Assembly: GCA_944372585.1 (NCBI GenBank)
Contig: CALVZQ010000003.1
Span: 93,467 to 157,466 of the forward strand
Origin: an uncultured Clostridia bacterium
GTDB taxonomy: Bacteria; Bacillota; Clostridia; Christensenellales; UBA1242
Direction: 5' to 3'
Length of the DNA stretch: 64,000 nt
Both the position numbers and the translations under genes were made by a program. Position 1 is the stretch's first letter; the number at the start of each line of letters is the position of its first letter. Below the pieces are notes generated by a model. It was not told the DNA's origin, searched no databases, and saw only the letters and a program-made list of their open reading frames with translations. Shown here one piece after another: positions 8,987 through 62,736 of the stretch.

Positions 8987-10003
8987 TTAGAAAAAGATTG
9001 TCAAAAACATTCCAGAAATGACACCTATTGCATACTGCATGGCAAGGATACCAAAATTTTCAAGCATATGTTTTTTGTTTCTCGTGAACAAAATGATAAG
9101 CCCGACCCCTGCTCCTGCAGTAAGCCCTGCGACCAATGCCGGAAATGAGAGCGTTCCATAAATGAACAACTCAACAAGCAAAACAGAAGATGCACAATTT
9201 GGAATCAATCCAATCAAACTTGCAATCAGAACTTGAAGATACATATTTGTTGTGAGCAAGTTTTCAAGTGTTTCAGTTCCACAATAACCTATAATCAAGT
9301 TGATGATGAATGTTGCAACAAAAATATAGATTGTAATGCTGAAAGTGTGCATAAAGGCATCAAGAAAAATGTTGTTTGCACAGCAACCATGTTCATGTCC
9401 ACAATCTGACGCACATCTGTCCGTGTGAATATGTCCACATTCATGAATATGTTCATGAGAATGTTCGTGCTCGTGATGTTCTTCATGTGAGTGCTCATGA
9501 TCTGCATCAGCGTCTATTGCAATTTCATGAGTCCCCGTCTCAGCAACTGGAACACTGACTACATTTGGAACACTTTTTTTCTTCTTAGAGGTTTTGATCG
9601 CTCCAATCGTCAAGTCAATCAAATATCCCCAAAATATTGCAAGTGCGATTTTGACACCAATGAGAAGCAACATCCAAAGAATTTGGTCTGTATTTGAAAT
9701 CATGATTGGAATTGCCTCATCGGAAGTTGCCACAAAAACCGCCGCAAGAGTCCCCAAAGAAACCGTCCTTCCAGAATATAAATCCGCAATGACTGATGAG
9801 AAACCACATTGAGGAACACAACCTAAAAATGCAGCATAAAGAACACTTGTTTTTTTGTTTTTTGAAAGAAATCTGCTGAACTTGTGGCTGTGATCGTGTG
9901 ATAGATAAGAAACAAGAAGATAAGCGAGAAAAAGGACTGGAACAACCTTAAGGCAGTCCAGCACAGCATCATATAAGCTTTCAACAAAGATTTCCACAGT
10001 CAC
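8987..10003 (-). CDS. Putative metal (Mn-type) permease with His/Cys-rich loop
   Basis: LGCVPQCGFS, FVATSDEAIP, GLIPNCASSV; central HEHSHEEHHEHEHSHEH tract. Confidence 0.8.
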   Translation of the reverse strand: MTVEIFVESLYDAVLDCLKVVPVLFLAYLLVSYLSHDHSHKFSRFLSKNKKTSVLYAAFLGCVPQCGFSSVIADLYSGRTVSLGTLAAVFVATSDEAIPIMISNTDQILWMLLLIGVKIALAIFWGYLIDLTIGAIKTSKKKKSVPNVVSVPVAETGTHEIAIDADADHEHSHEEHHEHEHSHEHIHECGHIHTDRCASDCGHEHGCCANNIFLDAFMHTFSITIYIFVATFIINLIIGYCGTETLENLLTTNMYLQVLIASLIGLIPNCASSVLLVELFIYGTLSFPALVAGLTAGAGVGLIILFTRNKKHMLENFGILAMQYAIGVISGMFLTIFF

Positions 10004-10191
10004 TTATCTCCCAAAACTTTTGTTATTATAGCACAAAATCAAATAAATTACAAAATAAATTATTATTTTTATTGTTTGATTATTTGCTTCTAATATGGTA
10101 TTATAAATACGAAACTTTCTATTCAACAATTTTAGATAAAAAGAATAAAGATTATATCAAAAAGCAACTTTAATCTAGTTAAGGAGCAAAA

Positions 10192-12297
10192 ATGGATAAA
10201 GAATTGAAACTTATCAATGTCAACAAAAAATACAAAATGTCAAATAAAGAAACCTTCCAAGCTCTTTATGATATCAATGTCGAATTTGACAAAGGAGAGC
10301 TTGTTTCTATTGTCGGCGAGAGCGGAAGTGGGAAATCCACCCTTATGAATCTTATTGGTGGGCTTGATTCAGACTATACTGGGTCAATCATCGCCGGTGG
10401 AGAAAACTTGAGCAAATTGTCCGAAAAAGAACTTGATAAATATCGCAAAAATAAAGTTGGATTTGTTTTCCAATCTTTCAACTTGATTTCACACTTGTCA
10501 ATCTTGGATAATGTCACACTTGCCTTAACCCTTTCAAATGTTGGAGAAAAAGAAAAAATTGAAAGAGCAACAGATATTTTGAAAAGAGTGGGTCTTGAAA
10601 ATCAACTCAAAAAGAAACCTACACAACTTTCTGGTGGACAAAAACAAAGAGTGGCAATTGCAAGGGCTTTAATCAATGACCCTGAAATCATAATTGCAGA
10701 TGAGCCAACTGGTGCTTTGGACAGCGGAACTTCAATGCAAATTTTGGAAATCTTGAAAGAAATTGCAGACAGTGGAAAATTGGTTATCATGGTGACTCAC
10801 TCCGAGAAAGTCGCCTCAATTTCTTCTCGTGTTGTTGAGATTTCCGATGGTAGAATTGTTGATGACAAAATTAACAAAAATTACAAGAGAAACAAAAACG
10901 CAGAATTCAAATTGCAAGAAGAAATTCCTGAGACAACGACAGAAAGTGTATCAAAGAAAAACAAAAAATCAAAAAATTCAAAAGACAAGCAAAACCTTTC
11001 TATGTGGTCCGCAATAAGACTTTCTTTTCACAATATGTGGGCAAGTCGTGTGAAGAATTTTTTGATGGCATTTGGAGTTGCAATTGGAATTGGAAGTTTG
11101 ATTTTGATGATGAGTTTCAGTTCTGGGATCACGGACTATATCAACAACACCATGAAATCATATTCCAACCCAACAATTGTGACAATTTCAAAAAAAGGTA
11201 GCGGTGACATTTCAAGCATGATGATGCCAAATTTCTTTAATGATGGAGAAAAAGAAACCTTAATTGAAAACATCAATGCATATTTGTCAGAAAACAATTG
11301 TGACTTTCAAGTCACTGAAGATAATGTGACTGAAGGTTTCAGCATGATGACCGTTGCGACAGGTGCAAAAGTTTATTACAGCCCAAGCGGAGATTATTTT
11401 CAAAGCAAAGATGACCCTGAAGCAGACTATGTCTCACTTTCAATCATATATCTCTACTCCACACCACCATATTACAGTGACAGCAATGTAATTGAAGGCG
11501 AAATGGGAACATCAACCGGTGGATTTATGTTTTCAAAGGGCATCAGCAGTTTGTTTGAAGACGGCTCTGCAGTTGGAAAGGAAGTTGAAATATCTTTCAC
11601 CTTCAAAACGTCTCAATCAGATCCTGGCACAGTGATAGAAAAACAAGATACAATTTGTGGAATTATGGACACATCAGTAATGTCAAATTTCCTTGTTATG
11701 TATGTTGACTACGATTACATTCAATCCATTTTTGAAGAAAAAGGAGTTGGCGACCATTTTGCCCCAACCTCCCTCTACATTCAAACTCCTTCTGAAACTG
11801 TGACAAACGCAATCAATGACTATCTCGCAACAACAGAAGGATACACTGGTTCCATCGAAGACCAGCTTGCTGGAATGTTCAACAGTATGTCAAGCATAAT
11901 TGGGACTTCACTTGTCGTGATCTCCTGCATTTCACTCTTTGTTTCTGCAATGATGATTTTGGTTGTTCTCTACATGAGCGTAACAGAAAGAACAAAAGAA
12001 ATCGGAGTTCTCAAGTCAATCGGTGCAAGAAGAAAGGATATCAAAAGAATTTTTACCTCAGAAAGTTTCTTGGTCGGTGTGCTAAGCGGAATTTTTGGAA
12101 TCATCTTCAACTTGATATTAACTTTGACCGTTTGGTTGGTTCTTACCTACACAATAGGACTTGCCCCAATAAGTTACCGCTGGTGGTATTTTGCCATCGC
12201 ACTCGGAGTTTCAATTGTAATCAGCATGTTGGCAGGACTTTATCCAGCAAGCAAAGCAGCAAAACTCGACCCTGTTGAAAGTTTGCGAAGAGAATAA
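10192..12297 (+). CDS. MacB-type fused ABC transporter (ATPase + FtsX permease)
   Basis: GESGSGKST, LSGGQKQR, ADEPTG; SVTERTKEIGVLKSIGA; LDPVESLR. Confidence 0.95.
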   Translation: MDKELKLINVNKKYKMSNKETFQALYDINVEFDKGELVSIVGESGSGKSTLMNLIGGLDSDYTGSIIAGGENLSKLSEKELDKYRKNKVGFVFQSFNLISHLSILDNVTLALTLSNVGEKEKIERATDILKRVGLENQLKKKPTQLSGGQKQRVAIARALINDPEIIIADEPTGALDSGTSMQILEILKEIADSGKLVIMVTHSEKVASISSRVVEISDGRIVDDKINKNYKRNKNAEFKLQEEIPETTTESVSKKNKKSKNSKDKQNLSMWSAIRLSFHNMWASRVKNFLMAFGVAIGIGSLILMMSFSSGITDYINNTMKSYSNPTIVTISKKGSGDISSMMMPNFFNDGEKETLIENINAYLSENNCDFQVTEDNVTEGFSMMTVATGAKVYYSPSGDYFQSKDDPEADYVSLSIIYLYSTPPYYSDSNVIEGEMGTSTGGFMFSKGISSLFEDGSAVGKEVEISFTFKTSQSDPGTVIEKQDTICGIMDTSVMSNFLVMYVDYDYIQSIFEEKGVGDHFAPTSLYIQTPSETVTNAINDYLATTEGYTGSIEDQLAGMFNSMSSIIGTSLVVISCISLFVSAMMILVVLYMSVTERTKEIGVLKSIGARRKDIKRIFTSESFLVGVLSGIFGIIFNLILTLTVWLVLTYTIGLAPISYRWWYFAIALGVSIVISMLAGLYPASKAAKLDPVESLRRE

Positions 12298-12327
12298 TAA
12301 AATTCCAAAACTTATAAAGGTATTTCT

Positions 12328-12981
12328 ATGATAAACGTAAAAAAATTTTTAAAAGATAATTCAGATTTGCGTTATGCAGAATTCAATAAAAAATTCATAA
12401 ATACACGCTATCCAATCATCGGAGTTCGACTTCCAACACTGCAAAAGTTTGCAAAGGAAATTGAGCCTGAATATATTGAATTTGATGAAAACCTATCTCA
12501 TGAAGAAATTATGTTGTACATCTATTGTGCTGGATGCTTCAAGACAGAAGACGAACAACTTGAATACCTTGAAAACATTTTGCCTTACATCGACAATTGG
12601 GCCACCTGTGATTGCACTGGAGCATTGAAGAAATTGAAAGGTGGAAAATCTTTTCGATTTTTTTCCAATCTCCTGAAGAGCAAAAAAGAGTTTGAAATTA
12701 GAGTTGGAATAATTGGTTTCATAAAGAACTTTCTTAAAACAGAAAAATTAATCGAAATCTTGGCACAAATTAGAGAAGTAAAGTCAGATGCATATTATGT
12801 TAAAATGGGAATCTCCTGGTTTTATGCAGAATTGTGCGCCTTTAACAGCGAACTGGCCGTCGGAGAAATCAAAAACACGAAAGATAAATTCATTAGGAAT
12901 AAATCAATTTCAAAAGCAAAAGAAAGTTACAGAGTTTCAGCCACAATCAAGGAAGAATTGGAAAAACTTAGAATGAAATAA
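12328..12981 (+). CDS. DNA alkylation repair protein (AlkD-like)
   Basis: IGVRLPTL, IDNWATCD, YYVKMGISW. Confidence 0.85.
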   Translation: MINVKKFLKDNSDLRYAEFNKKFINTRYPIIGVRLPTLQKFAKEIEPEYIEFDENLSHEEIMLYIYCAGCFKTEDEQLEYLENILPYIDNWATCDCTGALKKLKGGKSFRFFSNLLKSKKEFEIRVGIIGFIKNFLKTEKLIEILAQIREVKSDAYYVKMGISWFYAELCAFNSELAVGEIKNTKDKFIRNKSISKAKESYRVSATIKEELEKLRMK

Positions 12982-40532: not shown

Positions 40533-41099
40533 CTAGACTTTCATGACCTCTTCTTCTTTGTCTTCTGCAAGTTTGTCAGCCATATCTGTGTATTTATCAA
40601 TAAGTTTTTGAACTTCTTTTTCACTTGATGCATATTCGTCTTCTGAAAGTTCTCCATCTTTTTTCATGCTTTTCAACATGTCGAGGGCATCACGACGAAC
40701 ATTTCTCATTGCAACCTTTGTCTCTTCACAAATTTTCTTGACATTCTTAACAATTTCTTTACGTCTTTCTTCCGTAAGCATAGGGAAAACGAGACGAATC
40801 GTCTTTCCATCATCAGTTGGAGTTATGCCGATGTCAGATTGAGAAATTGCCTTTTCAACATTTTTAATTTGAGAAGCGTCCCAAACATTGATATTCAAAA
40901 TTCTTGCTTCTGAAACAGTAACCGTTCCCATTTGAACAATAGGGGTTGGCACCCCATAATATTCTACCATAACTTTATCCAAAATATGTGGATTGGCTCT
41001 TCCTGCTCTAATAACAAGATATTCATTTTGTTGGTGTAAATATGCTTTTTCCAAATCTTCCTTGCAGTTTGAAAAAATTTCATCAACCATTTCGTTCAT
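40533..41099 (-). CDS. frr: Ribosome recycling factor
   Basis: IRAGRANP, LTEERRK, RNVRRDA; AGGAG RBS before ATG 41099. Confidence 0.97.
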   Translation of the reverse strand: MNEMVDEIFSNCKEDLEKAYLHQQNEYLVIRAGRANPHILDKVMVEYYGVPTPIVQMGTVTVSEARILNINVWDASQIKNVEKAISQSDIGITPTDDGKTIRLVFPMLTEERRKEIVKNVKKICEETKVAMRNVRRDALDMLKSMKKDGELSEDEYASSEKEVQKLIDKYTDMADKLAEDKEEEVMKV

Positions 41100-41229
41100 A
41101 AATTCTCCTTTAATTTGTTTCAATTTTTGCAACCACAAAAGCATTACAATTTATGCACTCACAAGGGTCAAATTCCAATTCAATCTGCCTACAAATAAAC
41201 AAAAAATACTTGACCAAATGAACATTTCT

Positions 41230-41487
41230 TTCCGTTATAACTAGAAGCACGAACTTGCTTGCAAAAGTGAGTGCGACGTCGTTTCAATGCTTGTGTGAAG
41301 TGCGAACTTCAGTGAGCATTTTGCGTAGCAAATAAAATGTGAAACATTTTCTTCCGTTATAACTAGAAGCACGAACTTGCTTGCAAAAGTGAGTGCGACG
41401 TCGTTTCAATGCTTGTGTGAAGTGCGAACTTCAGTGAGCATTTTGCGTAGCAAATAAAATGTGAAACATTTTCTTCACACAAGCATT
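41230..41487. repeat. Two identical 122-bp tandem units with internal hairpins plus a closing 15-bp inverted repeat
   Basis: Units 41230-41351 and 41352-41473 are identical; aatgcttgtgtgaag (41286-41300, 41408-41422) is the reverse complement of cttcacacaagcatt (41473-41487). Confidence 0.95.
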
Positions 41488-41513
41488 ATAACCTAATCAA
41501 AAAAATTTTGCAA
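41485..41513 (-). promoter_or_regulatory. Sigma-A promoter firing into the 122-bp repeat
   Basis: - strand TTGCAA, 17 nt spacer, TATAAT. Confidence 0.7.
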
Positions 41514-41552
41514 ATTATTTTATCTCATTACCAAAAGAATATAATTGTAAAC

Positions 41553-41578
41553 AAAAAAACGACCATACAGTCGTTTTT
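41553..41578 (-). terminator. Terminator of the mTERF-like gene
   Basis: aaaaacgac / gtcgttttt stem with U7 on - strand right after the stop codon. Confidence 0.75.
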
Positions 41579-43511
41579 ATCTTTCAAAAGTGAATAATGT
41601 TGTGTCTTGCCCAAAATCTAGTTTGTTGACTTCTTCATTGAGTTTTCTTAATGGAGAAACCAAATCACCAACATTTTCAACAACCAAACTTTCTCCAAAC
41701 AGTTGTGGTTGTTTGTTTTGTCTTATATCAAAAGTTGTTCTGATTACTTCATCATAAGTTTTGACAATTTCAGATCTAAACAAATCAGTAATTGCCTCCT
41801 TGTCATCAAAACAAGAACTCAAATAGTCCATTGTTTTTTCAAAAAGTTGATCAACATTGGAATATTTTTTCCCAAGATTAAATCTTCTTTGTTCATAGGT
41901 ACTTCTTAGGAGGTTGAGAGCATCTTCAATTTGTTCGCTCGTTTCTATTTCTGCAACAGTGACATCATGTATGTCTTTGCCTTCAATCAAAAATCTTCTT
42001 TCGTGAAGCTGTTTAACATCATTTGCAAGAGACAGAACAAAATCTTTCTTTGATTTCTTTGACACACTTTCGTTTTTCAAAATTTTTGGCATATATCTTA
42101 TGTTTTGGCCAACTGTTCTGATTGAATGTCTTAAGGACTTTTCGCCATTAAGTGTTCTTCTTTCTTTTGCCTTAATCAAATCTTCAATCTTAGATTCAAT
42201 TTCAAAATTTCCATCAAAGAAAATTTCCACAAACTTATGCAAACAATCTTTGTCAGACATACTCTCCACCTCTATATCTTGCATAACAGCAGTGTTTGTC
42301 AATTTTTCTATGATTTTCTTGACGCTGAAATCAATATTGCTTGCAAACAGAGTTTTTCCAAACTCAAAAAACTTATCAAAATATTTTTCATCTGGAAATT
42401 CTGCGTCCAACCTTTCAATCTCCTTCAAAAGAATTGAAAATTGCGAAGAATTCATTCCAATCATATACGGGTTTGATGCAAGATATTTTGCAATATCGGT
42501 CTTTGATTTTTTGCTTATGATTTCAAGAGATCTAATGTTTTTGGTTGCATTTCTGACAATCTTGTCAAATGGAATTTGATTTAATATGGCAAGATTGATC
42601 GGCTCTTCAAAATATGCCTTAAATTGATATGCATACGAGTTTGAAGTGAAATCCGAAACCACGTCAACCAAATAGTTTTCTTTTTTAAACATTGTTGAAG
42701 AATTGATTGTAAGCAATGATGAATTGTTCTTCAACCACTTTCTTACCATGATCGTCCTGTATTCCAAAAAAGATAAATTTGGATTTTTTGCGGAAATCAT
42801 GGCATAACTTTTCTCCAATTTTGGCATCATTTTGCTTTGTAAATAATCAAAAGCATCTTGTATCCTGTCAGTTGATGTGACAAACAGTGAAGGATTAATT
42901 TTCAAAATGTCAACAACCTCATGTTTTCTGAACACTCTGTATGCTTTGTTTCTTTCATAAACCATCAACCCTTGAAGTTTGTCAAAAATTTGTGAAAATT
43001 TATATGCATACCCCTTTGCAATTAATGATGAACACTTTTCAAAAATTTCAACAGCTTCTTGATCGGTCAAATTTAGCGTTTTGACCAGAGCACTATAGAT
43101 ATATCTGAAATCACGATTAACATCATATGCCTTTAAAGATGTTTCGGCATCTTTTTTCAGGTTCCCATCAGTCAAAACAGAACAATACAAAATTTTGTAT
43201 GTGTTTATTTTTCTTGAAGAGGTTTGTCTGAACAAATTATCAAGTCGTTCCCTCATTTCTGACAAACTTTCTTTATCTGAAAACTGAGAATAATCCAGTT
43301 TTGAAAGAAAAACGTGTCCAACTTTTCTTTTTAATTTTTCATCGACTTGATCAACAAATGCGTCAAGATACGGAAAAACCGTGTTTAACATCACCAACAA
43401 GCGACTTTGGTCAATAGATTTTTTGAACTTTTCTTGAAGCATTTTTTCCGTTTCTTCTTTTGACAAAGCAAAATATTTGTAAACTTTTTGAAAAAAATCT
43501 TCTCTGCTCAT
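41577..43511 (-). CDS. Hypothetical alpha-helical protein with mTERF-like repeats
   Basis: Recurrent units of about 30-35 aa: FRKHEVVDILKINPSLFVTSTDRIQDAFDYL, LNLTDQEAVEIFEKCSSLI, VRKWLKNNSSLLTINSSTMFKKENYL, KTDIAKYLASNPYMIGMN; AGGAG RBS. Confidence 0.6.
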   Translation of the reverse strand: MSREDFFQKVYKYFALSKEETEKMLQEKFKKSIDQSRLLVMLNTVFPYLDAFVDQVDEKLKRKVGHVFLSKLDYSQFSDKESLSEMRERLDNLFRQTSSRKINTYKILYCSVLTDGNLKKDAETSLKAYDVNRDFRYIYSALVKTLNLTDQEAVEIFEKCSSLIAKGYAYKFSQIFDKLQGLMVYERNKAYRVFRKHEVVDILKINPSLFVTSTDRIQDAFDYLQSKMMPKLEKSYAMISAKNPNLSFLEYRTIMVRKWLKNNSSLLTINSSTMFKKENYLVDVVSDFTSNSYAYQFKAYFEEPINLAILNQIPFDKIVRNATKNIRSLEIISKKSKTDIAKYLASNPYMIGMNSSQFSILLKEIERLDAEFPDEKYFDKFFEFGKTLFASNIDFSVKKIIEKLTNTAVMQDIEVESMSDKDCLHKFVEIFFDGNFEIESKIEDLIKAKERRTLNGEKSLRHSIRTVGQNIRYMPKILKNESVSKKSKKDFVLSLANDVKQLHERRFLIEGKDIHDVTVAEIETSEQIEDALNLLRSTYEQRRFNLGKKYSNVDQLFEKTMDYLSSCFDDKEAITDLFRSEIVKTYDEVIRTTFDIRQNKQPQLFGESLVVENVGDLVSPLRKLNEEVNKLDFGQDTTLFTFER

Positions 43512-43531
43512 CAAATCATCTCCTTGATGAC

Positions 43532-43560
43532 ATTATAAACCGTAAACCATGTTTTGTCAA
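43532..43560 (-). promoter_or_regulatory. Perfect consensus sigma-A promoter of the mTERF-like gene
   Basis: - strand TTGACA-aaacatggtttacggtt (17 nt)-TATAAT. Confidence 0.85.
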
Positions 43561-43635
43561 TATAAAAATTTTTAAATTTCGACATTAATAATCAAAAAAA
43601 GTCCAAAAAAGAATCAAATTTTTGATTGTTGAAAC

Positions 43636-43664
43636 AAAAAAGACGCCAAATTTTTGACGTCTTT
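43636..43664 (-). terminator. rpsB-tsf terminator
   Basis: - strand aaagacgtcaaa / tttggcgtcttt stem with U-tract immediately after the tsf stop. Confidence 0.8.
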
Positions 43665-43668
43665 GAAA

Positions 43669-44328
43669 TTATTTTCCTGCCATTTGTTTTGCAACTTCTT
43701 CAGCCAAGTTGTCGTTTCTCTTTTCCATTCCTTCGCCAAGTTCATAGCGTTTGAATCTACGAATAGAAATTTTTTCTCCAATCTTAAGGGTTGCTTCAGT
43801 CAAAAGGTCTTTGATTGTAAGGTCAGGATTTTTTACGAAATGTTGGTTCAAAAGGCAAACATCTTCATAAAATTTCTTAACTCTTCCTTCAACCATTTTT
43901 TCAATGATTGCTTCAGGTTTTCCCTCGTTCTTTGCTTGTGCTCTCAAAATTTCTTTTTCTTTTTCAAGTTCGGTTGGATCAACATCAGCTTCCGCAACAT
44001 ACTTAGGATTTGCAGCTGCAATATGCATTGCAATGTCTTTAACCAATGTTTGGAAATCGTCGCTCTTTGCAACGAAGTCTGTTTCACAGTTAACTTCAAC
44101 CAAAACACCAATTCTTCCGCCCATGTGAATGTAAGAAGCAACCAAACCTTCAGAAGCAATTCTTCCTTGTTTTTTGTCAACAGCCTTAAGTCCTCTTTCT
44201 CTCAAAAGAACAATAGCCTTTTCAAAATCTCCATTTGCATCTGTAAGTGCTTTTTTGCATTCCATCATGCCAACGCCTGTTTGTGCTCTAAGACGGGCAA
44301 CATCTTGTGCAGTAAAACTCATAATCAT
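43669..44328 (-). CDS. tsf: Elongation factor Ts (short form)
   Basis: [40 protein letters not shown]. Confidence 0.98.
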
Positions 44329-59198: not shown

Positions 59199-62100
59199 TT
59201 ATATCCTTTTTGCAAACTTAACAATGATGAAACCATCTCCAACCTCGACATTCTTTTCGATGTCAGGTTTTTCAATCTTTTCAACTGCACGAACAATCAA
59301 AACTTCTTGTTTGATTTTGTCCATATAATTGTAAAGCATCGTTGCAAGACTTTCGTCAGCAGTTTCAAAATATGCATAAATTCTGTCATCGATAGAAAAA
59401 TCTGCTTCTTTTCTGAGCACTTGAAGTCCCCTGACAAATTCGCGATACAAACCTTCCAAAATCAAATTTTCGTCAAGAGTGATGTCAAGCACAACAGTGT
59501 TGCCATTTTCATGAGCAATCACAAAGTCGGTCTTAGGTTTTTTCTCCAAATTGAAAAGTTCACTGTCCAAGTCTTTAAATTCTCCAACTGAAACTTTTCC
59601 ATTTTTGTAGTCCTGCATAACCTTCTTGTTTTCTTCATCAGAAAGTGACGACAAAACAGTTTTCAATTTTTGAACTTCACCTTTCAAAACTGCTCCTGCT
59701 TTTTTGAAGTTAACAGACAAATATTCATCATTAAACTTGCTGTCATCAACAACACATTCAAGTTCTTTGACATTCAATTCTTCTTTGATTATGTCTTCAA
59801 AATCAGAAAGCACTGAAACAGTTTTGTCTCCACCTGCAACATACATGATGCGAAGAGGTTGTTTAACTTTGATTTGATTTTCGTTTCTAAGTCTTTGAGC
59901 GGTTGACATGATGTCTCTTGCAATCTTTGTTCTTTCCAAAATGTCCCCAAAATCTTCGTCGTAAATCTTTGTTGGGAAACCGCTGAGCATAATGCACTCA
60001 ACTTCTTTCTTTTCAATTTCTCTAACCATATTTTGCCAAATATATTCTGTCACAAATGGAATGATTGGAGTCATCACCCTAATCATTGCCTTGATTGCAC
60101 TATACAAGCACCAATATGCAGTCAACTGGTCGTCTTTGTTCTCACTCTTCCAGAATCTCTTACGATTGCTTCTGATATAATAATTGGAGATGTCATCAAC
60201 CAATTTTTCAAAATCACGAACGACAACAAACTGCTTGTCGTCGGCATAATTTTTGTCACTGTCTTCAACAAATTTGTTTATGCTCTGAATGAGCCATTTA
60301 TCTGACACCAGCAAATTCTCTGACTTTGGTTTGAATCCTTCAAGAGCAGGATTATCAATGCAAGCATAGGTGTTGAAGAATGTGTAAATGTTCCAGAAAG
60401 CCAAAATTTTTCTTCTTGCTTCGTCAGTCAAAGTGAATCCAAATCTCATATCGTTGCTTGGACTTGAAGAAGAGAAAAGATATCTCACAACATCTGCTCC
60501 AACCTTGTCAGCAACAATATCTGCTTCCAAAGAATTTCCACCACTCTTATGGAACTCTCCACCGTGTTCGTCTTTGACATATTGATATGTCACAAGTTTT
60601 TTGTATGGAGCTTTTCCAGTGAGCACGACACTCATGATGAGAAGTGAATAAAACCAAAGTTTGATTTGTTCAATCATTTCGCAAACATAATCACTTGGGA
60701 AGTTTTCTTCAAAAAACTTTTTGTCAGTGAAATATTTCTTTGTTGAAAATGGAGTGATTCCCGCATCAAGCCAAACATCTCCAACATCTGGAACACGACA
60801 AACTTCTTCTCCACAATCACACTTGATTTTGATGTCATCAATCCATGGTCTGTGAATGTTTGGAAGTTTGTCCACGAACTCTGGATTGATCGCTCTCTTT
60901 TTCAGTTCTTCAAGTGAACCAATAACGTGCACTTTGCCACATTTTTCACAAACATAGAAAGGAAGAGGAAGTCCATAGAAACGACTTCTTGAGATGTTCC
61001 AATCTCCCATGTTTTGAAGCCAGTCAATCATTCTCTTTTTTGCATATTCAGGCTTAAATTCAACATCTTCAATTGCTTTGAGAGCCATTGGTCTGATTTC
61101 ATCAATTTTGATAAACCAACCAGAAACCAATTTATACACCAAATCTGTCTTGCATCTCCAGCAGAAAGGATATGAATGTTTGTATTTGTGTGCATAGAGA
61201 AGTTTTCCATCTTCTTTCAAACGATTAACCACCAAATCAACAACATCAGTTGTCTTTTTTCCAGCAAGGAAACCTGTGTTTGGAAGCATAACTCCCTGCT
61301 CGTTGATTGGACAAATCTCTGGAAGTCCCAATGTTTGTCCCAAATCAAAGTCTTCTGCACCACAACCTGGAGCAATGTGAACAACACAGCTTCCTTCCAC
61401 ATTGTCAACTTCGTCCCAAGCAACAATTTTGTGTGCAAAGTTTTCTTCTGGAAGTTCTGGGAAACAAGTTTCATATTCAAGCCCAACAAGTTCTGCCCCC
61501 TTAAACTCTTTCAAGATTTTGACGTCTTCTTTCAAAATCTTCAAGCGGTCTTTTCCAAGAACAAGTTTTTCTCCGTGAAAATCAACTTCAACATAGTCAA
61601 ACACTGGATTGACAGCAAGAGCGACATTCGCAGCAAGAGTCCATGGGGTTGTTGTCCATGCAACCATTTTGAAATCTTTGTTCTTGACTGGAAGTTTAAT
61701 GAAAACTGCAGTATGTTCCACTTCGTGATAAGAAGACGACATTTCGTGTTCTGACAAACTTGTTCCACAACGAGGACACCAAGCCATTGGTCTGTTTTTT
61801 CTGATTATCCAACCATGCTTGTCACATTCTTTCAAGAAATGCCAGATTGAAGTGATGTTTTCATCAGTGTTGGTGTAGTAACTGTTATCCCAATCCATCC
61901 ACTGTCCCATTCGAATTGATTGGTTTGTGATCTCGTTTGCAAAATATTTCACTCTTTCCATACACTTGTTTGTGAATTTGTCAATTCCATATTGCACAAT
62001 CTCAGGCTTTCCATTGAGTCCAAGTTCTTTTTCAACATTAACTTCCACCCAAAGGCCTTGTCCATCAAAGCCGTTTTGATATTGACAATCTTTGCCCTTG

Positions 62101-62318
62101 AGAGCATTGTAACGAATTGTCAAATCTTTGAGCGTTCTTCCCCAAAAATGGTGAATTCCAAGACGATTGTTTGCAGTTGCAGGACCATCAAGAAACTTAA
62201 ATCTGTCATGTCCAGCATTTTTCTTTACCAACTTATGGAAACTGTCATTTTCCTTCCAAAACTTCAAAATTCCTTTTTCTAACTCCACAAAATTTGGAAC
62301 TGTAACTTCTTTTTTCAC
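59199..62318 (-). CDS. ileS: Isoleucine--tRNA ligase, type 2, GXHH variant
   Basis: GTG start after AGGAGG; DGPATAN..LGIHH, WTTTPWTL, DWNISRSR, EFHKS; type-2 C-terminus without zinc finger; Ile T-box upstream. Confidence 0.95.
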   Translation of the reverse strand: MKKEVTVPNFVELEKGILKFWKENDSFHKLVKKNAGHDRFKFLDGPATANNRLGIHHFWGRTLKDLTIRYNALKGKDCQYQNGFDGQGLWVEVNVEKELGLNGKPEIVQYGIDKFTNKCMERVKYFANEITNQSIRMGQWMDWDNSYYTNTDENITSIWHFLKECDKHGWIIRKNRPMAWCPRCGTSLSEHEMSSSYHEVEHTAVFIKLPVKNKDFKMVAWTTTPWTLAANVALAVNPVFDYVEVDFHGEKLVLGKDRLKILKEDVKILKEFKGAELVGLEYETCFPELPEENFAHKIVAWDEVDNVEGSCVVHIAPGCGAEDFDLGQTLGLPEICPINEQGVMLPNTGFLAGKKTTDVVDLVVNRLKEDGKLLYAHKYKHSYPFCWRCKTDLVYKLVSGWFIKIDEIRPMALKAIEDVEFKPEYAKKRMIDWLQNMGDWNISRSRFYGLPLPFYVCEKCGKVHVIGSLEELKKRAINPEFVDKLPNIHRPWIDDIKIKCDCGEEVCRVPDVGDVWLDAGITPFSTKKYFTDKKFFEENFPSDYVCEMIEQIKLWFYSLLIMSVVLTGKAPYKKLVTYQYVKDEHGGEFHKSGGNSLEADIVADKVGADVVRYLFSSSSPSNDMRFGFTLTDEARRKILAFWNIYTFFNTYACIDNPALEGFKPKSENLLVSDKWLIQSINKFVEDSDKNYADDKQFVVVRDFEKLVDDISNYYIRSNRKRFWKSENKDDQLTAYWCLYSAIKAMIRVMTPIIPFVTEYIWQNMVREIEKKEVECIMLSGFPTKIYDEDFGDILERTKIARDIMSTAQRLRNENQIKVKQPLRIMYVAGGDKTVSVLSDFEDIIKEELNVKELECVVDDSKFNDEYLSVNFKKAGAVLKGEVQKLKTVLSSLSDEENKKVMQDYKNGKVSVGEFKDLDSELFNLEKKPKTDFVIAHENGNTVVLDITLDENLILEGLYREFVRGLQVLRKEADFSIDDRIYAYFETADESLATMLYNYMDKIKQEVLIVRAVEKIEKPDIEKNVEVGDGFIIVKFAKRI

Positions 62319-62341
62319 GAATTTCCTCCTAGATTTATAAT

Positions 62342-62635
62342 AAAAAGCCTTGAAAGTTACAAGAACCCTCAAGGCATTTTTAAACCACTTGTAAACTTTC
62401 AGTGTGCCAACACACACCTGCTTAAACTCACGGGAAGCCACCGTCTTCGCCTATCACCAATGAAGCGGAGGATTTTTTGTTCATTTTAAACAAACATTCT
62501 CTCACACATCCACTCACATCATCGATGCTTCGGAAAGCAACTTGAAAAGTGATAATTTCAACAACTTCATATTGCCTTTCACCAAACGGCAACTCTCTGA
62601 AAATCCGTGCATCAAAACCTTGTCTTTTCTCAAAC
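62342..62635 (-). promoter_or_regulatory. T-box riboswitch (Ile specifier) upstream of ileS
   Basis: - strand CAGAGAG and GGTGAAAG loop motifs; specifier GAAATTATC (ATC = Ile, 62553-62551); terminator gccttgagggtt / aactttcaaggc plus U-tract. Confidence 0.85.
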
Positions 62636-62736
62636 GTCTTTAATTTGTTTTTTTAATTTATTCAGTTTTAAATTCTCAAAATACTCAAGAATTATTGTCA
62701 TTATACACAAACCAGAAATCAATGTCAAATATTGTA

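Follow-up and report, generated by a model that had tools for sequence, protein, structure and literature searches.

A 64,000-nucleotide (nt) stretch of a contig from an uncultured Clostridia bacterium (the window; all coordinates are window positions) carries on its minus strand an open reading frame (ORF) of 644 amino acids (aa) that begins with an ATG at 43511 and ends with a TAA stop codon at 41577-41579. The evidence presented here supports the view that the product of this gene is a divergent mTERF-fold protein of bacterial origin, with the predicted fold in agreement with a sequence signal detected at the family level. The coding sequence of the mTERF-fold protein (P0001), stop included, spans 41577-43511 on the minus strand. 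It is flanked on the same strand by tsf (43669-44328) and frr (40533-41099), within the same-strand gene order rpsB, tsf, the mTERF-like ORF, frr, uppS, cdsA and rseP.

The signals expected of a single gene surround the ORF. A sigma-70-type promoter that matches the consensus at 12 of 12 positions (TTGACA-17-TATAAT; 43532-43560, minus strand) lies upstream, and an AAGGAG ribosome-binding site (RBS) can be read off the sequence 8 nt 5' of the ATG (43520-43525, minus strand). A putative intrinsic terminator consisting of a 10-pair stem and a T-run (41555-41578, minus strand) overlaps the stop codon, and the predicted intrinsic terminator of tsf (43639-43664, minus strand) separates that gene from the mTERF-like gene. 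The initial annotation of this DNA had described the 644-aa ORF between tsf and frr, with its exact promoter, RBS and dedicated terminator, and all of these are present in the sequence. The exact promoter string occurs twice in the 64-kb window, compared to an expectation of 0.02, and none of 100 shuffles contained two or more copies; promoters with 11 or 12 of the 12 positions precede six of six homologues (12 in loci L022 and L028, 11 in L023-L026). The other exact occurrence (62700-62728, minus strand) lies about 260 nt 5' of a long ileS frame (59199-62441), and no T-box or other Rfam family reached the gathering score upstream of that frame.

Sequence kinship with mTERF proteins

Four degenerate units can be located in P0001, with cores KCSSL, NPSLF, NNSSL and NPYMI starting at residues 159, 206, 262 and 347. 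The Asn-Pro pair is found in two of these four readable units (P207 in NPSLF and P348 in NPYMI), with C-S-S or N-S-S in the other two, and P207 is conserved in at least 90% of the 33 family members that make up the alignment and profile A1. In the AlphaFold model, inserted elements separate the units, among them two beta hairpins and a helix of 29 residues. At the DNA level, Tandem Repeats Finder detected no array in the gene with the period of a unit (about 100 nt), just four short arrays with periods of 9-16 nt in or beside it. The description of P0001 as a helical protein with at least four degenerate repeat units thus agrees with both the four units found and a model that is almost all helix.

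The link to mTERF proteins emerges when the family is used as a whole. The Pfam mTERF model (PF02536, curated cut-off 23.1 bits) matched 4 of the 33 family members at E <= 1, and one of them, P0108, which is 37% identical to P0001, exceeded the cut-off with 25.4 versus 23.1 bits. When the A1 profile was compared with the sequences in the PDB, the top two matches were MTERF3 (3m66, E 0.031) and MTERF4 (9e9c, E 0.041), over residues 194-234. A further result came from an hhalign comparison of A1 with A3, an alignment of ten bacterial proteins that match PF02536 at 54-81 bits: the two alignments were related with a probability of 94.7% and an E-value of 6.3e-8 over 173 columns, corresponding to P0001 residues 138-359. 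A protein atlas also gave, as a lead only, a best feature score of 0.78 for a bacterial cluster in which 83% of the members carry PF02536. The PADLOC and PHROGs collections yielded no match for P0001, and the 33 family members gave scattered weak matches to three and four families, respectively, each in 1 of the 33.

Regular tandem-repeat proteins of 372-473 aa, with PF02536 matches of 54-81 bits, are encoded at loci L012-L020 (genomes G084, G108, G011, G093, G074, G041, G082, G096 and G017) and at L057 (G414), and these are probably of the published pTERF type, which is discussed below. In G414, which belongs to a different family of the phylum, two such tandem-repeat mTERF proteins are encoded next to each other.

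Predicted structure of the two domains

The AlphaFold model of P0001, built on A1, is nearly all helix and has a predicted local distance difference test score (pLDDT) of 89.6 and a predicted template modelling score (pTM) of 0.81. In a Foldseek search of the PDB, human MTERF1 occupied every one of rows 1 to 7 (E between 2.8e-3 and 1.8e-2, probability 1.00, template modelling (TM) score on the target 0.49-0.58). Weaker rows, with E of 0.037 and above and TM on the target of 0.2-0.3, were TAL effectors and BurrH-type repeat proteins, and a search of viral structures returned just tape-measure-like long helices with TM of 0.1-0.17. VIA-align ranked nine MTERF1 or MTERF3 structures first (Z 10.6-11.6, 251-294 residues covered, in targets of 270-344 residues). 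The best of these superpositions, on human MTERF1, aligned 290 of 324 residues at a root-mean-square deviation of 5.7 (Z 11.6, 12-14% identity) and involved model residues from 39 to 412-414. The model also matched MTERF3 at Z 10.7, a mitoribosomal protein of Tetrahymena at Z 8.3 and MTERF4 at Z 7.3. MTERF1 thus leads both structure searches; a comparison of the AlphaFold model with human MTERF proteins was among the checks proposed in the initial annotation.

On these results, together with hhalign and the isoelectric point (pI 9.15), residues of about 30-415 (42267-43424, minus strand) can be assigned to a basic N-terminal solenoid of the mTERF type with roughly eight degenerate three-helix units. 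The claim that this is a bacterial mTERF-like protein is borne out by the family profile, by the Pfam match of P0108, by the hhalign result and by the superposition on MTERF1. Three points argue in the opposite direction. P0001 alone has no usable match in Pfam, NCBIfam or the PDB sequences, so the Pfam check suggested in the initial annotation failed for the protein itself and succeeded for one family member in 33. In addition, no Foldseek match reached E <= 0.001, and VIA-align Z values below about 13 may, for helical repeats, reflect a common arrangement and are not decisive. On this last point, the mTERF rows nevertheless top the list, extend over nearly all of the target and are consistent with the sequence data.

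The remainder of the protein, residues 416-644 (41580-42266, minus strand), is predicted to form an acidic, family-specific helical bundle with a small three-stranded sheet. Modelled alone, it gave a pLDDT of 92.7, again with long helices and three strands. Its structural matches were to generic helical bundles only, the best being fungal Mp1p domains (Z 9.7, 120 residues aligned), and an Mp1p-type identity was therefore not assigned. Sequence relatives of the C-terminal domain are confined to the family itself (11 of 11 matches); no longer fused form of the region was found among 7999 candidates scored, which is weak evidence. A homodimer prediction for the domain was uninformative (score 0.00). 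The two halves differ strongly in charge, with a pI of 9.15 for the N-terminal domain (family median 8.55) versus 5.45 for the C-terminal domain (family median 5.61) and 8.38 for the whole protein.

Distribution and evolution of the family

A word-indexed search retrieved 103 full-length homologues at E <= 0.001, with 34-100% identity and lengths of 636-678 aa, and none of the 103 carried a precomputed Pfam domain. When 1.84 billion cluster representatives were searched exhaustively, 43 passed the same threshold, 27 of them at E <= 1e-30. When P0001 was searched against whole genomes, 7 of 41 relatives matched, all seven from the genus of the window, and there was no match in any of 16 genomes from other families of the order. 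With the A1 profile, the family was detected in 37 of the 101 genus genomes. These are small genomes, of roughly 0.7-1.5 Mb; that of the window is 1.12 Mb and 97.8% complete, and it contains no second mTERF-like gene detectable with the A1 and A3 profiles. PF02536 itself was detected at E <= 0.01 in 27 of the 101 genus genomes (above the cut-off in 17), in proteins of about 370-470 aa and with scores up to 81 bits. Two of 14 control genomes matched, neither above the cut-off, and a phylum-wide sample gave matches in 4 of 401 genomes, 2 of them above it. At locus G063:C3:67156-69181 the homologue is broken up into a 186-aa and a 587-aa frame that overlap, as a result of a frameshift, pseudogene formation or faulty assembly.

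In public sequencing data the window's sequence is present in four DNA runs of one chicken-gut study, at 92% or more of the sampled words, and two of these runs may be its source. The same allele occurs in runs of three further studies (X5, X7 and X8) with a few differences per hundred bases. One low-depth contig from X8 joins position 41102 to 43669, the shorter side being just 33 nt long at 90% likeness, and may come from a relative in which the slot between tsf and frr is empty.

Comparison of the window with its closest locus, L028, whose allele is 72% identical, gave for the mTERF-like gene a synonymous divergence (dS) of 1.40 and a nonsynonymous divergence (dN) of 0.186, a ratio of 0.13, and three more distant loci gave dN/dS of 0.22-0.52. 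By these ratios the gene is under purifying selection. For the flanking genes in the same pair, dS is 0.10-0.63 and dN/dS 0.01-0.10. Nucleotide identity to L028 is 96-100% over most of tsf, falls to 61-83% from about 43700 to 41930, rises to 80-89% in the last 350 bp of the mTERF-like gene and is 90-95% downstream. Because the low-identity block is sharp and includes the promoter, replacement of the whole allele by recombination appears to fit better than faster change in place, judging from this single genome pair.

The gap between tsf and frr

All seven homologue loci checked have the gene in the interval from tsf to frr, or beside whichever of these two the contig includes. At locus L022 (genome G008; locus coordinates 9944-12635), a 314-aa membrane protein gene, PnuC-like by eye, stands on the opposite strand between the mTERF-like gene and frr. 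The usual content of the gap was surveyed in the 88 genus genomes that have tsf and frr on one contig. It is empty (93-427 bp) in 40 of the 88; it contains an A1 match in 22, of which 19 are strong and full-length, the other 3 being weak and located in 921-969-aa frames; and it holds something else in the other 26. Twenty of those 26 were scanned and proved to contain heavy-metal P-type ATPases (G078, G109), a glycosyltransferase with an acyltransferase (G075, G048), Flg_new surface proteins (G090, G060), weak HipA-like proteins (G005, G041), 931-aa proteins with a local A1 match (G058 and G100, E 1.8e-11 and 1.4e-9) and, in the remaining 10, ORFs without a family. Even among genomes whose tsf is at least 80% identical to that of the window, only some have the 645-aa form of the gene, and the gap is empty in G070, G003, G067 and G042 despite 92-93% tsf identity. 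The gap between tsf and frr (41100-43668 in the window) is a variable insertion hotspot in the genus, and location within it is therefore no evidence of a role in translation.

The initial annotation had read this position as the pyrH slot, a meaning that is not supported: the gap is empty in 40 of the 88 genus genomes and holds unrelated cargo in others, and no AA_kinase domain (PF00696, the family that includes pyrH) was found anywhere in the 97.8%-complete genome of the window. Nor was the domain found in 88 of the 101 genus genomes searched; in the other 13 it occurs in frames of 312-416 aa, and the two of these that were placed (G001 and G043) lie on contigs other than that of the slot. 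In a sample of the order, 59 of 61 genomes have AA_kinase, and both genomes that lack it belong to the window's genus. Because AA_kinase is gone genome-wide and from most of the genus, pyrH has been lost by the lineage and was not displaced by the mTERF-like gene. PyrH is held to be essential in bacteria, and this lineage appears to live without it. Functional replacement of pyrH by the mTERF-like gene was considered and rejected, as P0001 has no kinase-like feature and the genomes with an empty slot mostly also lack pyrH.

In the same genome, cytidylate kinase is encoded as a fusion of two complete domains, scoring 212.9 and 186.2 bits, within a 455-aa frame (C6:104200-105525), and one of these copies might supply UMP kinase activity. 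The double fusion is also found in G001, G003, G008 and G018; in G013 two copies lie side by side. A single cytidylate kinase match was found in 13 of 19 other genus genomes and 15 of 16 sister-family genomes, with none in the rest. The fusion cannot account for the loss of pyrH across the genus.

A 122-nt repeat downstream of the gene

Some 85-100 nt past the stop codon begins a tandem repeat of 2.1 copies of a 122-nt unit that are 98% alike (41221-41476). With a 20-nt inverted arm (41473-41492) the whole block covers 41221-41492 and constitutes an insertion in the 5' leader of frr. A promoter-like sequence, TTGCAA-17-TATAAT (41485-41514, minus strand), represents a conserved frr promoter and is not part of the mTERF-like unit: the same sequence stands immediately 5' of frr in L023, L024 and L028. 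In both the window and L028 the repeat sits between this promoter and the RBS of frr, and by this position it belongs to the frr leader.

The initial annotation had called the repeat structured and had suggested that it was a target or partner of the protein. The repeat is real, and the structure is weak: the minimum free energy of folding has a z-score of -1.85, a level of stability matched by 9 of 200 shuffles. No Rfam family reached the gathering score in the window, and the segment 41050-41650 gave only a chance-level MicX row (E 0.83). The repeat is confined to the window's genome and L028, both of which have two copies (91-93% identity in L028), and is absent from the five other homologue loci with downstream sequence (L022-L026). 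The proposed check of co-occurrence with homologues thus came out negative, with the repeat near just 1 of 6 loci. A 32-nt core of the unit is found twice on contig C5 of the same genome (C5:42210-42241 and C5:42378-42409), 168 nt apart and intergenic, each copy behind AAGGAGG. Given its position in the frr leader and its restriction to this genome and L028, the role of target or partner is not supported, and the repeat is probably unrelated to the mTERF-like protein.

A proposed function and its alternatives

The proposal that we consider reasonably probable is that P0001 acts as an accessory, sequence-specific nucleic-acid binder with double-stranded DNA as its probable target, in which the basic solenoid would bind and the acidic bundle would recruit or regulate. 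The gene would be transcribed alone from its near-consensus promoter, with transcription ending at its own terminator. The solenoid (residues of about 30-415) would then bind a specific nucleic-acid sequence along its length, most likely double-stranded DNA by analogy to MTERF1, pTERF1 and pTERF2, and the bound protein could serve as a roadblock or as a transcription regulator at a few sites, while the C-terminal bundle would bind partners or exert regulation. The gene itself is one of several alternative cargoes of the tsf-frr hotspot of a single genus, with very divergent alleles. The data show the gene and its signals, the fold, the homology to mTERF repeats, the purifying selection and the patchy distribution; what we infer is that the protein binds nucleic acid, that this is DNA, and that it works as a roadblock or regulator. 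That the gene is accessory and not a core translation gene follows the distribution given above. The basic N-terminal domain is the sole, indirect indication of DNA or RNA binding.

Several observations temper the proposal. The pI of the N-terminal domain reaches down to 5.02 within the family, expression of the gene is predicted from its promoter, and nucleic-acid binding is a model-based prediction. MTERF3 and MTERF4 also match the model, and mTERF relatives also bind RNA or ribosomes. This last point leads to an unlikely alternative, namely that P0001 is an RNA-binding or ribosome-associated factor comparable to MTERF3, MTERF4, several plant mTERFs and the mitoribosomal mTERF-fold proteins, and that its place in the gene cluster reflects a role in ribosome assembly or translation. 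The constant association with tsf or frr at the seven homologue loci would suit such a role, as would the matches of the model to MTERF3, the Tetrahymena mitoribosomal protein and MTERF4 and the fact that MTERF3 and MTERF4 are the two best PDB sequence matches. However, the slot is variable, being empty in nearly half of the gaps surveyed and filled with unrelated cargo in others, and a family found in only part of its genus and in none of the 16 sister-family genomes cannot be a core ribosome factor. Furthermore, the structures that the model matches best are those of MTERF1 bound to DNA.

An improbable alternative sees the protein as a helical-repeat scaffold with other proteins, not nucleic acids, as its ligands, having inherited an mTERF-like fold and reused it. 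The resemblance of the C-terminal half to generic helical bundles, the mildly basic pI of the whole protein and the lack of an identifiable target sequence are all in keeping with a scaffold. Yet the solenoid half is basic in most members of the family, as its median pI indicates, and every mTERF-fold protein characterised to date binds DNA or RNA, to our knowledge. Hu et al. (2024; PMC11417379) describe such binding for pTERF1 and pTERF2. Very improbable is a pairing of the protein with the downstream 122-nt repeat as its DNA or RNA target. Such a pair would explain why the repeat adjoins the gene, and it can draw on the two copies kept in L028 and on the core that recurs twice on another contig, but the repeat is missing at five other loci, belongs by position to the frr leader, folds in an ordinary way and matches nothing in Rfam.

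The preferred reading of P0001 as an accessory DNA binder can be taken one step further, to a speculative and rather doubtful version in which the family would be a strain-variable, re-targetable nucleic-acid reader whose promoter and solenoid alleles are swapped by recombination at the hotspot.

Comparison with known systems

Human MTERF1 (PDB 3MVA, 3MVB and 3N7Q) shares the solenoid fold with P0001 over nearly the whole length of MTERF1, and the two proteins are alike in their degenerate, non-tandem three-helix units, in the N-P-x-hydrophobic start of the third helix, with Asn-Pro in two of the four readable units of P0001, and in a basic repeat domain. In contrast to MTERF1, P0001 is bacterial and cytoplasmic without organelle targeting, carries an extra acidic C-terminal bundle of 229 residues, and is a candidate for DNA binding and base flipping. 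The organellar set (MTERF1-4 and the plant mTERFs) consists of nucleus-encoded, imported proteins, and P0001 is not one of them: because its gene lies between tsf and frr in a bacterial genome of 1.12 Mb and has the promoter, RBS and terminator of a bacterial gene, it shares the organellar fold and not the organellar membership. MTERF3, MTERF4 and the mitoribosomal mTERF-fold proteins act on rRNA or in ribosome assembly and are core organellar factors. P0001 matches their fold, and MTERF3 and MTERF4 head the PDB sequence matches of its family profile, but its gene is accessory and present in part of its own genus. TAL effectors and BurrH-type proteins are likewise helical-repeat superhelices that wrap DNA; the match of P0001 to them is much weaker than that to mTERF, and it has neither regular repeats of 33-35 residues nor repeat-variable residues.

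The closest bacterial precedent is pTERF, the name given by Hu et al. (2024, Nucleic Acids Res; PMC11417379) to mTERF-like tandem-repeat DNA-binding proteins from metagenome-assembled genomes (MAGs) of Clostridia. According to that paper, pTERF1 and pTERF2 bind specific double-stranded DNA with nanomolar dissociation constants (Kd), pTERF1 binding ACTNNNAGTC with a Kd of 1.87 nM, and the pTERFs are regular tandem arrays of 3-11 units without the conserved mTERF proline. P0001 resembles them in being mTERF-like and in coming from MAGs of uncultured gut Clostridia (Bacillota), and the window's genus also has the regular tandem-repeat PF02536 proteins of A3, which hhalign relates to the P0001 family. 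Compared to the pTERFs as described there, P0001 differs in its degenerate, interspersed units, in the proline of two of the four readable units and in its unique C-terminal domain; it does not have a regular tandem array of 3-11 units.

Implications

Bacterial mTERF-like proteins have been known since 2024 in the form of the pTERFs, with their regular tandem repeats. A search for the exact phrase "bacterial mTERF" found no paper, and in the literature since 2023 the paper of Hu et al. was, judged by title and among the matches listed, alone on bacterial mTERF-like proteins. Plant and animal reviews still hold mTERF to be absent from prokaryotes, and a 2026 plant paper states that mTERF genes are absent from bacteria (PMC12977773). 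The P0001 family adds a bacterial form that is closer to the eukaryotic mTERFs, with degenerate interspersed units, some of the prolines and almost full coverage of MTERF1, and it joins the mTERF solenoid to a new C-terminal domain.

If the family were indeed a re-targetable reader, close strains would recognize different sequences, and the result could be a strain-specific block of invading DNA or an insulation of transcription. A genus with three mTERF-like architectures would then also be a bacterial diversification centre of a fold supposed to be confined to eukaryotes, with a bearing on the origin of the organellar mTERFs. A single gut genus with small genomes is unusually rich in the fold, PF02536 matches occurring in 27 of 101 genomes versus 4 of 401 in the phylum sample, and this concentration offers tractable natural variants for asking what bacterial mTERF-fold proteins bind and how the bacterial and organellar proteins are related.

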